From a virus (lineage: Duplodnaviria; Heunggongvirae; Uroviricota; Caudoviricetes): DNA of 4,020 bases. Each line of letters begins with the position of its first letter. Position 1 is the stretch's first letter. This document shows, one piece after another, positions 1,015 to 4,020 of the stretch. The notes under the pieces are model-generated. The model was not told the origin of the DNA. It was given only the letters and a program-made list of their open reading frames with translations, and searched no databases. A program made the translations under genes and the position numbers. The DNA is taken from IMG/VR virus record IMGVR_UViG_2698536454_000011. One strand, given 5' to 3'.

Positions 1015-1022
1015 TCGTCATG

Positions 1023-1026
1023 CTCC
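1023..1026 (-). promoter_or_regulatory. Shine-Dalgarno (GGAG) for J
   Basis: Plus-strand 'ctcc' at 1023-1026 gives GGAG on the minus strand, 8 nt upstream of the J ATG at 1014. Confidence 0.55.
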
Positions 1027-1036
1027 ATAAACGACA

Positions 1037-1056
1037 AAACCGCCCGGAGGCGGTTT
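1037..1056 (-). terminator. Perfect 8-bp stem / 4-nt loop hairpin in the I-J spacer, followed on the coding strand by a T-rich tract; candidate attenuator, RNA-stability or partial intrinsic terminator element
   Basis: Plus-strand 1037-1044 'aaaccgcc', loop 1045-1048 'cgga', 1049-1056 'ggcggttt' (exact reverse complement). On the minus strand this reads AAACCGCC-UCCG-GGCGGUUU followed by UGUCGUUUAU and then the J ribosome-binding site. Confidence 0.35.
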
Positions 1057-1074
1057 CACATAAAACATTTTGCA

Positions 1075-1722
1075 TCAGCGACCAATCACCACAACCTGAC
1101 CACCGTCCCCTTCGTCTGCCGTGCTGATCTCCTGAGAAACCACCCGCGACCCCACACGCATTTCACCGTACAGAACAGGCAAAACATTGCCCTGAGCAAC
1201 CATGTTATCCAGTGAGGAAAAATAGGTGTTCTGTTTGCCGTTATCTGTACTGGCTGCCGTGGACGTCCTGGCTTTCGGTGCCAGCATCTGCGCCACACCG
1301 CCCAGGATCATACTGGCCCCTGCCGCATACATGCCCGATACAGCCGCGGCACCCAGCCAGCCCACAGGGTTCCACCATGCCACCGCAATCAACGCCGCCC
1401 CCAGCACCACCTGAAACACACCGCCACTTTTAGCTCCCGCCAGACGCGGCACGATATGGATCACGGCACCATTTGCCAGCGGCTCATTAAGACGGGCAGA
1501 TAATTCGGTTTCACCTGCATCACGCCCGGCAATGCGCACCTGATACCAGCCGTCATTCAGTTTCTGACGAAACGCCGGGAGCTGTGTGGCCAGCGCCCGG
1601 ATGGCTTCGGCCCCCGTTTTCACACGAAGGTCGATGCGGCGGCCAAATCGTTGCAAATCCCCGTAAAGGCAGATGCGTGCCATGCCCGGTGACGCCAGAG
1701 GGAGTGTGTGCGTCGCTGCCAT
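1075..1722 (-). CDS. I: Tail tip assembly protein I (215 aa); ubiquitin-like N-terminal region ending in Gly-Gly, hydrophobic Gly/Ala-rich middle segment, conserved C-terminus
   Basis: ORF-track protein MAATHTLPLASPGMARICLYGDLQRFGRRIDLRVKTGAEAIRALATQLPAFRQKL...TDNGKQNTYFSSLDNMVAQGNVLPVLYGEMRVGSRVVSQEISTADEGDGGQVVVIGR matches lambda gpI at the N- and C-termini as I recall it. Position is between K and J as in lambda. Start lies inside the 3' end of K. GAGG is about 12 nt upstream of the ATG. Confidence 0.93.
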   Translation of the reverse strand: MAATHTLPLASPGMARICLYGDLQRFGRRIDLRVKTGAEAIRALATQLPAFRQKLNDGWYQVRIAGRDAGETELSARLNEPLANGAVIHIVPRLAGAKSGGVFQVVLGAALIAVAWWNPVGWLGAAAVSGMYAAGASMILGGVAQMLAPKARTSTAASTDNGKQNTYFSSLDNMVAQGNVLPVLYGEMRVGSRVVSQEISTADEGDGGQVVVIGR

Positions 1723-2363
1723 TTGTCGGTATACCTCTCTCGTTTGCTCAGTTGTTCAGGAATATGGTGCAGCAGCTCGCCGTCGCCGCAGTAAATAGCG
1801 GCATGATTCGGCACCGATGAACCAAAACAGCACAGCAGCACATCGCCCGGCTGCGCCGCTGACAACGGCACCTGATACAGCCCTGTGGCCTCCAGATTAT
1901 CCAGATAGAGATTCTGACCGTTACGCCACCAGTCATCCCCGCGATGAAAATCCGGCATCTCAATCCCCGCCAGATGGTAAGCATCCCGGAACAGCGTGTA
2001 ACAGTCCGTCACCCCGTGCTCAAAGCGCCGCCCGGTGAGATGCGGCACACAGCGGAATTTATGAATCTCACCCCGGCAGACCAGCCACCACGGCAAATCA
2101 CTCTGCACCTGCAGCCGCCGGTCAGCCTCACTCAGCCAGGGCAGACCACCGGGGTGGCTGTGGACCAGCGCCACAATCTCACCCTGCATTTCTGCCCGCA
2201 GCCAGTCTTCCGGCGACATACGGAAATACGCCTCCGGCTCACCGGAGATATTCACGCAGGGGAAATATCTTTCCCCCTCCGGCGTGCTTACCACGAAGCC
2301 GCACGACTCCGCTGGCGCACATCGCCGGGCGTGCGCCAGAATCGCTGATTCTGTCTGTGTCAT
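1620..2363 (-). CDS. K: Tail tip assembly protein K, long form (247 aa): N-terminal JAB/MPN (JAMM) metalloprotease-like domain plus C-terminal NlpC/P60 cysteine-peptidase-like domain. The classically annotated 199-aa lambda K corresponds to an internal start at 2219
   Basis: ORF-track protein MTQTESAILAHARRCAPAESCGFVV...ALVHSHPGGLPWLSEAD...GVTDCYTLF...PNHAAIYCGDGELLHH... From M49 (MSPEDWL...) onward it matches lambda gpK as I recall it. The stop overlaps I by 103 nt, the same geometry as lambda. The 5' boundary is uncertain between 2363 and 2219. Confidence 0.85.
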   Translation of the reverse strand: MTQTESAILAHARRCAPAESCGFVVSTPEGERYFPCVNISGEPEAYFRMSPEDWLRAEMQGEIVALVHSHPGGLPWLSEADRRLQVQSDLPWWLVCRGEIHKFRCVPHLTGRRFEHGVTDCYTLFRDAYHLAGIEMPDFHRGDDWWRNGQNLYLDNLEATGLYQVPLSAAQPGDVLLCCFGSSVPNHAAIYCGDGELLHHIPEQLSKRERYTDKWQRRTHSLWRHRAWHASAFTGICNDLAAASTFV

Positions 2364-2368
2364 GGGAT

Positions 2369-3067
2369 TTACTGCGAAAGTTTGTTAATGGAAAGGAAGC
2401 CGCCAAAGTTGCCGACATTATTGCGAAACTTACAGCCACTCAGGCATTTGCTGCATTTATCCTTCGTGATATCGGACGTCGGCTGGTCATATTCATCCGC
2501 GACCGCCGGACCGTTATAACCGCACTCATCACCGCGATAGGTCCAGGTGCAGGTATTAGCCAGCATGATGCGCCCCGGAAAAACGGCACCATCCGTTTCA
2601 GTCGGCGTGGACAGTACAAAGGAGGCACTGACCGCGCTCAATTCGCTGCACTGCTCGATGCGCCAGCGGCTAATCACCTCCTGCTCCGGATCGGCGTCGC
2701 TGTTTCCGTTGACGAAGTTCACCGCATCCAGAAAACGGGCGTAAACCTTACGCCGGACCACCGTTCCGCCGACCAGACTCTGCAGATCTTCCGCCATCCC
2801 GGTGACCATACCGTGCAGGTTAGAAACCGTCAGTGTCGGACGGGCAGCACTGCCCTTGCCGTTCAGTTCAAATCCTGTCCCCTGAATGGGGTATGCCTGA
2901 TACTGCCGCCCCTGCCAGGTAACCGGCTCACCTTTTTCGTTCTGCTCATTACAGAAAAAATAACGTTCACCACCGACCTCTGTCAGATCGATTTCCCAGA
3001 GCACCACCTGGGCTGACTGAGTGAGGCGTGTCGTCTCATGATGTGTTTCCTGTGGAATATCCTGCAT
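2369..3067 (-). CDS. L: Tail tip assembly protein L (232 aa), with C-terminal cysteine cluster (iron-sulfur cluster-binding in lambda gpL)
   Basis: ORF-track protein MQDIPQETHHETTRLTQSAQVVLWEIDLTEVGGERYFFCNEQ...ANTCTWTYRGDECGYNG...KDKCSKCLSGCKF...LSINKLSQ matches lambda gpL as recalled, with the same length. GGAGG is 5 nt upstream of the ATG. Position is between M and K. Confidence 0.95.
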   Translation of the reverse strand: MQDIPQETHHETTRLTQSAQVVLWEIDLTEVGGERYFFCNEQNEKGEPVTWQGRQYQAYPIQGTGFELNGKGSAARPTLTVSNLHGMVTGMAEDLQSLVGGTVVRRKVYARFLDAVNFVNGNSDADPEQEVISRWRIEQCSELSAVSASFVLSTPTETDGAVFPGRIMLANTCTWTYRGDECGYNGPAVADEYDQPTSDITKDKCSKCLSGCKFRNNVGNFGGFLSINKLSQ

Positions 3068-3072
3068 CAGAG

Positions 3073-3077
3073 CCTCC
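3073..3077 (-). promoter_or_regulatory. Shine-Dalgarno (GGAGG) for L, overlapping the M stop codon
   Basis: Plus-strand 'cctcc' at 3073-3077 gives GGAGG on the minus strand, 5 nt upstream of the L ATG (3067). The M stop TAG occupies 3077-3079. Confidence 0.6.
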
Positions 3078-3406
3078 TATGCCACGACCTGTTCAAAATC
3101 TGCCGTTATGGTTACCCACAGCGCCCCCACGCTTGCCGACCATTTACGACAAACCACCCTGATCGGTTTCCAGTCATAAGGTGGCGTCCACTGAAATGCA
3201 CGGACGCCACCGTGCCGTTCCAGAAAGGCTTTTAAAGATGGGTGTTCACATTTACGAACACGTATCGTCACGCTGTAAGTCGACAACTGGTTATTCAGTC
3301 CCGCCGCACGACGCTGTTCATAACCATCGCCCAGCTTCACTGTCACCACTTTCGGCTCTGATACCACATTCATATCCGGGCGCACTTTCCAGTGAAACGT
3401 CTCCAT
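3077..3406 (-). CDS. M: Tail tip assembly protein M (109 aa)
   Basis: ORF-track protein METFHWKVRPDMNVVSEPKVVTVKLGDGYEQRRAAGLNNQLSTYSVTIRVRKCEHPSLKAFLERHGGVRAFQWTPPYDWKPIRVVCRKWSASVGALWVTITADFEQVVA matches lambda gpM as recalled, with the same length. Its ATG overlaps the H stop codon (TAATG). Confidence 0.95.
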   Translation of the reverse strand: METFHWKVRPDMNVVSEPKVVTVKLGDGYEQRRAAGLNNQLSTYSVTIRVRKCEHPSLKAFLERHGGVRAFQWTPPYDWKPIRVVCRKWSASVGALWVTITADFEQVVA

Positions 3407-4020
3407 TACCGATATGCTCCACTTAACCGACCACCATCACGGGCCTGCTGTTGCATAAAGTCCGCTGCCGCTTTTTTCCCGAGGTCATAAACCGCCTTCA
3501 GGGCAGCCGGACCTATCTGCCCGTTCGTGCCATCGTTATTGATCTCGATGTTGTACTGCGGGGAAAACATCGCCATACCTGAACCCCCAATATCCGCCAC
3601 AACCCCCAGCTTACCGTCAGCACCACGACGCAATGGCAAAATGGCTTCAGGTCCCGCTTCCCCCATCACACCCGCGCCTTTTGCAAAAGCAAAAAACGTC
3701 GGACGGTTAACCACCGTGCCACTGTAACGACTCAAATCAGCAGACTGATAAATCCCCCCATTGGCATTCAGGGAAAGGCTGCTGAGATCAAATCCCAGTA
3801 CACTGCCAATCCCTTTTATCGATTTCATCATGGTTGCCTGCGCCAGGATTTTCGCCATATCTGACAGCACAGAAGAGGTGAAGGATTTGAAATTGAGTTT
3901 GCCGGTAGTGACAAAAGTTGTAAGCGTCGTCTCAGCACCGTCTGGCAGATCCTGAAATTCCTGAGAGAATAGTGGACACCAAATATGGTGGACGCTATCC
4001 ATGAAATCATTAACCGCAGT
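3406..4020 (-). CDS. H: Tail tape-measure protein H, C-terminal ~204 codons; gene starts beyond the window end (5' partial)
   Basis: The minus-strand frame is open from the window edge (4020) to the TAA at 3406-3408. The track ORF 3406..4002 starts at an internal Met; the codons upstream (...TAVNDF-MDSVHH...) contain no stop. Position immediately upstream of M, and the Gly/Ala/Ser-rich C-terminus, are consistent with a lambda-type tape-measure protein. Confidence 0.9.
   Translation of the reverse strand, partial: TAVNDFMDSVHHIWCPLFSQEFQDLPDGAETTLTTFVTTGKLNFKSFTSSVLSDMAKILAQATMMKSIKGIGSVLGFDLSSLSLNANGGIYQSADLSRYSGTVVNRPTFFAFAKGAGVMGEAGPEAILPLRRGADGKLGVVADIGGSGMAMFSPQYNIEINNDGTNGQIGPAALKAVYDLGKKAAADFMQQQARDGGRLSGAYR

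Follow-up and report, generated by a model that had tools for sequence, protein, structure and literature searches.

The window, by which we mean the whole 4,020-nucleotide stretch of DNA analysed, carries all of its real genes on the minus strand, in the order H-M-L-K-I-J of the lambda tail-tip module, as read from the open reading frame listing and Pfam. It takes in the 3′ end of H (3406-4002 and beyond; Tape_meas_lam_C), M (3077-3406; Phage_min_tail), L (2369-3067; Phage_tail_L), K (1620-2363; 247 amino acids plus stop; Prok-JAB and NLPC_P60), I (1075-1722; 215 amino acids plus stop; PF06805, Lambda_tail_I) and the 5′ part of J (1-1014; FNIII-A_GpJ, E 1.5e-42; 87-100% DNA identity to lambda). 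I is the tail tip assembly or plug protein gpI, and J, the central tail fibre, is the docking partner of its C-terminal region. This gene order puts I between K and J, as in a tail module of the lambda/T1 type; the first-pass annotation of the stretch had noted K next door. The 3′ end of K and the 5′ end of I overlap by 103 nt (1620-1722, minus strand); lambda is annotated alike, and the overlap is present in distant K-I pairs too. The lambdoid coliphages PhiR47_1, mEp460 and cdtI share 95-98% DNA identity with the window over nearly its entire length. An Rfam scan of the window returned no family, and two plus-strand reading frames antisense to the I segment (1212-1433 and 1226-1414) had no PHROG match and are therefore regarded as mechanical reading frames.

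The 60-nt spacer between the stop of I (1075) and the start of J (1014) holds a hairpin (1020-1068, minus strand) with a GC-rich inner stem, AAACCGCC / GGCGGUUU, a UCCG loop and then UUUUGUCGUUU. Its folding energy is -22.9 kcal/mol (z -3.2), none of 200 shuffles folds as well, and it is nearly identical in lambda. The hairpin is terminator-like in look and was not flagged by a consensus terminator scan of the window; a role in mRNA stability or attenuation within the Q-antiterminated late operon is conceivable.

Domain anatomy of I

I represents an unexceptional allele of its phage lambda counterpart, the tail-tip protein I. It matches PF06805 over residues 14-97 (E 1.3e-24, 86.9 bits, against a gathering cut-off of 23.8) and lambda gpI (PDB 8iyk_I) with E 1e-106, and belongs to PHROG 32, 'tail assembly protein'. 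Pfam, AlphaFold2 (AF2) and Foldseek together delimit a ubiquitin-like (Ubl) β-grasp domain at residues 14-97 (1432-1683). Its tail, G96-A-K-S-G-G101 (1420-1437), is the presumed processing site on the grounds of conservation and of a published prediction (PMC1779556). There follows an uncharged, Gly/Ala-rich hydrophobic segment, residues 102-149 (1276-1419), which composition, a shuffle test and AF2 helices equate with helices H1/H2 of lambda gpI. Residues 150-215 (1078-1275) form the C-terminal structural region, comprising the plug and the β-strands that dock onto gpJ, assigned from identity to lambda gpI (61/66). All of these features lie on the minus strand. Translation bears out the codons and sequences first quoted for the domain end, with G100 encoded by GGC (1423-1425) and G101 by GGT (1420-1422), residues 91-101 reading VPRLAGAKSGG and residues 102-149 reading VFQVVLGAALIAVAWWNPVGWLGAAAVSGMYAAGASMILGGVAQMLAP. 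The span then given for the feature, 1303-1425, begins at G100 but stops at residue 140, and the hydrophobic segment reaches residue 149 (coordinate 1276).

The start codon of I is uncertain between Met1 and Met14. In many homologues and database annotations (200-amino-acid forms) the first residue is the one that corresponds to Met14 (MARICLYG), and residues 1-13 (1681-1722, minus strand) are modelled with low confidence and lie outside the Pfam domain.

An AF2 model of I was made with a 40-sequence alignment of diverse representatives (A1). Across residues 11-90 it has a pLDDT of 79-89 and a predicted β-grasp topology, with the elements in the order E14-19, H21-26, E29-33, H37-56, E60-64, E67-69, H74-78 and E87-92. 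Foldseek matches of this domain in the PDB were all Ubl proteins, SAMP1, MoaD and Urm1 first and then ubiquitin and SUMO; the SAMP1 match had E 5.6e-4 and a TM-score of 0.70 on the target, and the top matches all scored about 0.7. Model and search thus agree with the earlier proposal that residues 1-101 are ubiquitin-like. Confidence falls below 50 for residues 95-178. Low confidence outside the N-terminal domain is expected, because the C-terminal part acquires its fold only once the tip is assembled, when its strands add onto gpJ (PMC10721106).

To define which residues at the domain end are conserved, we used 60 diverse, near-full-length representatives of I, with which alignment A1 agrees. 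G101 is kept in 51 of the 60 and in at least 90% of A1. G100 is glycine in just 16 of the 60 and is often a gap. G96 (59/60) and A97 (50/60) are both at or above 90% in A1, and P92, G108, G135 and G142 are invariant in both sets. Among close lambdoid homologues the pair is Gly-Gly in 101 of 103, and the corresponding sequences of two relatives with solved structures are GSKQSG-LFQ and GSKTGG-LFQ. By number, Gly-Gly pairs in I are unremarkable, with three observed (at 100, 141 and 207) against 3.1 expected from composition, so that the significance of this pair comes from its position at the domain end and from the conservation of G101. The Gly-Gly that the first-pass annotation had pointed out therefore holds in part across the family: G101 holds family-wide, but G100 varies and the di-glycine is a trait of the lambdoid subgroup. 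Since G100 is variable, ubiquitin-style recognition of Gly-Gly is no rule of the family. By these counts, what the family has in common is one terminal glycine with a hydrophobic helix, starting [VLI]-[FL]-Q, directly behind it; a single terminal glycine with its following segment was already described as such by Iyer et al. in 2006 (PMC1779556).

The hydrophobic segment

Residues 99-149 make up a 51-residue run free of charge, a length reached by only 9 of 20,000 composition-preserving shuffles. Within it, the 48 residues of 102-149 are 40% Gly plus Ala, against 24% in the remainder of I. The Gly/Ala-rich stretch of about 45 residues noticed at first sight behind the Gly-Gly is thus real, slightly longer, and uncharged beyond chance. 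AF2 predicts helices at 101-117, 119-127 and 131-146, with low confidence. The Kyte-Doolittle mean over 19 residues peaks at 1.70 near residue 111. Judged over stretches of about 19 residues against a threshold of 1.6, H1 (102-120) scores 1.70 and H2 (120-138, 130-148) a moderate 1.13-1.25 in this allele; lambda gpI has two peaks above 1.6.

In closed lambda tails the corresponding segment forms helices H1/H2 within the tip lumen, and in the open tip bound to LamB gpI is visible only from residue 167 on, the H1/H2 density being gone (PMC11101478). TMHMM predicts H1/H2 of lambda gpI to be transmembrane, and insertion into the outer membrane has been proposed (PMC12617516, PMC11101478). The segment had been described as either membrane-inserting or buried; from the lambda structures (PMC11101478), both appear to apply, at different stages.

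K and its linkage to I

Pfam places a Prok-JAB domain at residues 3-105 of K (E 4.7e-14) and an NLPC_P60 domain at residues 111-224 (E 1.7e-12). Read from its sequence, K carries an intact JAMM catalytic motif, HSHPGGLPWLSEAD (residues 68-81; 2121-2162, minus strand), recovered with the pattern H.H.{7}S..D. Eight diverse homologues of K all keep the Glu19 (in ESCG) that lies upstream of the motif; the NlpC/P60 domain has Cys120.

Lambda-type records give K a length of 199 amino acids (OM418626: 14276-14875). An intact frame of 247 amino acids, whose ATG closely follows the stop of L, is present in both lambda and the window, and the two share 100% identity in the upstream DNA. The 199-amino-acid form lacks about 48 JAB residues, including the conserved Glu19 (window 2220-2363, minus strand; L002 1833-1976). 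As it cuts into the JAB domain in this way, the true start of K is probably the upstream ATG at 2363.

We surveyed the neighbours of I in IMG/VR loci found with single distant I proteins as queries (35-41% identical to the window I). A K gene with both JAB and NlpC/P60 domains lies directly upstream and overlaps I in 47 of 49 stand-alone homologues, the two exceptions being at contig edges. A JAB domain was not detected in four loci in which I is fused to a J-like protein, and in the three of these whose upstream reading frames were read (L132, L134, L135) the upstream K is NlpC/P60-only. JAB thus tracks stand-alone I and not I-J fusions, which points to the JAB half of K, rather than the NlpC/P60 half, as the partner of a releasable Ubl. 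The linkage pattern itself was noted in 2006 (PMC1779556).

The I-J fusions (L132 2653-5085, L134 2668-3915 and L135 2395-6090) come from distant phages and have an I-like region N-terminal to a large J-like protein. That region starts like a Ubl and contains one hydrophobic helix and the motif GDPIPVVYG; in L134 the sequence ...ALMPGG still stands directly ahead of the helix. The gene upstream of each of the three encodes a short NlpC/P60-only protein. Natural K-I fusion proteins also occur among the entries (P0002, P0004, P0006, P0018 and P0095). These are joined inside the 103-nt overlap, are without the JAB N-terminus and, except for P0004 (two members), form single-member clusters; for these reasons we judge them most likely to be frameshift or annotation artefacts or pseudogenes, not programmed frameshift products.

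Mosaicism relative to lambda

Lambda gpI (PDB 8IYK/8IYL/8K35/8XCG, 9E7M) is the product of the same gene at the same position in M-L-K-I-J, with the same K overlap. It has 223 residues against 215 in the window I, and alignment upholds the earlier impression that the two differ in length and in the middle. Residues 1-55 are identical throughout (55/55); identity drops to 33/46 over residues 56-101, the C-terminal third of the Ubl, and to 15/34 over residues 102-135, where there are also two 4-residue deletions in the H1-H2 turn, and returns to 61/66 over residues 150-215. The GAKSGG tail is common to both proteins, whereas residues 152-157 read TSTAAS in the window I and TPRIQT in lambda. The window I is an allele of the mEp460/PhiR47_1 type.

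At the DNA level, identity to lambda is 87-100% from position 1 to about 3000, outside a patch at 1231-1535 (minus strand; residues ~63-164 of I) in which it is 50-70%, with an island of 83-90% at 1261-1320. Megablast of gene I to lambda gives two pieces that cover 69% of the gene. With a low-identity patch between high-identity flanks, I therefore has an internal mosaic patch, which confirms and locates the lambdoid mosaicism first suggested for its middle segment. Strong divergence sets in again at 3001-4020, which holds the 5′ end of L, M and the 3′ end of H.

Among close homologues of I, variability is highest at residues 111-140 and 151-160, and Gly-Gly and MLAPK stand between 34 and 60 residues apart. 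What varies is thus the stretch that runs from the end of H1 through the turn into the start of H2. Covariation of the hydrophobic block with the C-terminus of gpH was considered and rejected, as at least four gpH C-terminal types occur with essentially the same block across 80 IMG/VR loci. The hypervariable H1-H2 turn reassorts independently of gpH and of the remaining I. It might be under diversifying selection linked to outer-membrane entry or to exclusion systems.

Two features of the gpH C-terminus were seen along the way. Four otherwise divergent C-terminal types, RDGGRLSGAYR, RDGGLFSGGGR, RRDGGLYSA and RRDGGMLSG, all keep an R-D-G-G motif some 6-9 residues before gpH ends (window 3409-3440, minus strand; L003-L082). 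The cut that converts gpH to gpH*, whose site and enzyme are reported as unknown (PMC12617516), lies upstream of it. Within the H/M region, which is 33-67% identical to lambda, an island of about 90% DNA identity at 3481-3540 (minus strand) corresponds to H residues ~25-44 from the C-terminus and encodes INNDGTNGQIGPAALKAVYD. In lambda structures the gpI trimer holds a segment of gpH, and this sequence sits where that segment begins.

Discussion

The architecture described here was recognized by Iyer, Burroughs and Aravind (Genome Biol 2006), who found a Ubl in tail assembly protein I of lambda and T1, described a conserved C-terminal glycine, a glycine-rich linker and a C-terminal domain, and put forward K as the enzyme whose JAB domain would set the Ubl free with a cut at its C-terminal-most glycine (PMC1779556). 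The window I shares with that TAPI/TAPK family (2006; PF06805 with a Prok-JAB/NlpC/P60 neighbour) the Ubl, the terminal glycine, the Gly-rich linker, TAPI-C and the K and J flanks. [quoted passage not shown] For lambda, a 2025 plenary summary reports cleavage of the Ubl off gpI by gpK, attributes this to the deubiquitinating domain of gpK, and adds that cleavage occurs only after gpI engages other tip proteins, so that stepwise assembly is enforced (PMC12908700). Our literature search for a primary paper on this cleavage gave the conference summary only. Cryo-EM of lambda shows gpI residues 135-223 or 134-222 only, as a trimeric plug that supports the C-terminal coiled coil of gpH (PMC10721106, PMC12617516; PDB 9e7m), and another lambda model (among PMC10721106, PMC12617516 and PMC11101478) shows gpI from residue 101; gpK is absent from the virion (PMC10721106).

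The F-type pyocin plug PA0640 and its gpK homologue PA0639 (PDB 25vf) have the same architecture (E 1.9e-21 over residues 11-201). The PA0640 plug holds the tape-measure C-terminus and loses its N-terminal region on maturation; by mass spectrometry that region is absent from mature particles and present in assembly-stalled mutants. Deletion of PA0639 leaves tip-less F-pyocin tubes, which its authors interpret as a proteolytic checkpoint. The Ubl tail of PA0640 is GSKQSG, as against GAKSGG in the window I, and the F-pyocin is a tailocin, not a phage.

We consider it very probable that I is made as a precursor, consisting of a Ubl of the ThiS/MoaD/SAMP type, a two-helix hydrophobic hairpin and a C-terminal plug, from which K, through its JAB domain, frees the Ubl near G101. 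The precursor would join the nascent tail tip in the order J, then I, L and K. Once I sits in the tip, the JAB/JAMM domain of K would cut at or beside G101 and free the Ubl, and the remaining ~114 residues would stay in the virion as a trimer. This mature fragment would plug the tube and hold gpH until receptor binding, which during infection would open the tip and let the I helices exit, probably into the outer membrane. The Ubl would most likely serve as a removable solubility tag, by which the hydrophobic hairpin is kept from misbehaving in the cytoplasm, and as a steric checkpoint that holds an incomplete tip back from docking to gpH and the tube. Our own analysis contributes the domain anatomy of I and its predicted fold, the conservation pattern of its glycines, the finding that the JAMM site of K is intact, and the linkage, across distant phages, of the K JAB domain to stand-alone I; cleavage by gpK, the plug structure and the loss of the N-terminal domain come from the literature. 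From the two together we infer the exact scissile bond, the chaperone or checkpoint role of the Ubl and membrane insertion. Processing of I by K is predicted for the window allele from its sequence and reported for lambda in the conference summary. The pairing of a ubiquitin-like protein with a JAB peptidase that had been read from the sequence at the outset is thus upheld by the fold, G101, the intact JAMM motif and the linkage, but with one glycine, not Gly-Gly, as the family-wide signal.

Could something other than the JAB domain remove the Ubl? K also contains an NlpC/P60 domain with Cys120, and when PA0640 is produced by itself in E. coli, host proteases take off its N-terminal region, so that removal does not strictly depend on a dedicated protease. 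We nevertheless hold it unlikely that the NlpC/P60 half or a host protease does the work while JAB has another job. JAB accompanies stand-alone I and was not detected at the I-J fusions, whereas NlpC/P60 is present at both kinds of locus, and the plenary summary names the deubiquitinating domain. JAB/JAMM enzymes are moreover the class that cuts after the C-terminal glycine of Ubl proteins, as is generally known and is discussed in PMC1779556. That the Ubl is never cut, and stays in the virion as a flexible domain invisible to cryo-EM averaging, we regard as very unlikely. [quoted passage not shown] Against retention stand the report of gpI cleavage by gpK (PMC12908700) and the F-pyocin homologue, whose N-terminal peptides are found only in assembly-stalled mutants; the tip lumen around the gpH coiled coil also appears to offer little room for three 100-residue domains (judged from PMC10721106 and PMC11101478).

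The fate of the hydrophobic segment is less settled. It is possible, if on balance doubtful, that the segment is purely buried, gripping the gpH C-terminus in the tip and never entering a membrane: in closed tails the helices do lie in the lumen around gpH (PMC10721106, PMC11101478), only H1 tops the Kyte-Doolittle threshold in the window allele, and membrane insertion is a proposal that has never been visualised. Against this, H1/H2 are gone from the tip in the LamB-bound open state and point towards the membrane (PMC11101478), and the occurrence of one I block with at least four gpH C-terminal types means that the block is not tailored to a single gpH partner. The closest folds, SAMP1, MoaD and Urm1, and the conserved terminal glycine could also suggest that the released Ubl is a true modifier, activated at that glycine and then conjugated or thiocarboxylated like ThiS, MoaD or SAMP. 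We give this almost no credence. Among the six genes of the 4-kb window there is no E1-like or E2-like reading frame or domain, to our knowledge the lambda genome has no such gene either, and in an N-terminal Ubl fusion release alone is enough to explain the conserved glycine. Another role for K, raised as speculation by Hör et al., is that its JAB domain, besides maturing I, would strip Ubl proteins conjugated by the host (Bil-type defence) off the central tail fibre J, beside which K is active while the tip is being assembled; this strikes us as a distinctly long shot.

The proposed release of the Ubl from an I precursor by K has parallels in cells. Eukaryotic fusions of ubiquitin to ribosomal proteins and archaeal SAMP fusions (cut by a JAMM enzyme) likewise begin with a Ubl that ends in glycine and is freed by a dedicated peptidase. 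Fusion and dedicated release are as proposed for I; the cargo of I is a virion component with a hydrophobic N-terminus, and no reuse of the I Ubl as a modifier is known. Phage T5 has a trimeric plug at the same place in its tip, the plug domain of pb3, for which interaction with the outer membrane has also been proposed (PMC10721106). That plug is an insertion in the hub protein, and has neither a Ubl domain nor JAB-mediated release (PMC10721106).

The finding in the window I is real but already known, having been predicted in 2006 and recently reported as shown experimentally for lambda, and the checkpoint account is that of lambda and F-pyocin studies already published or soon to appear. What the window adds is one more allele of I, the observation that a single terminal glycine is conserved and not Gly-Gly, a map of lambdoid I variation, and the pattern of a JAB domain that tracks stand-alone I and goes undetected beside I-J fusions. 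In this system a virus would use a ubiquitin-type tag and a deubiquitinase-type enzyme as a checkpoint in the assembly of a tail component that is hydrophobic and probably acts on membranes.
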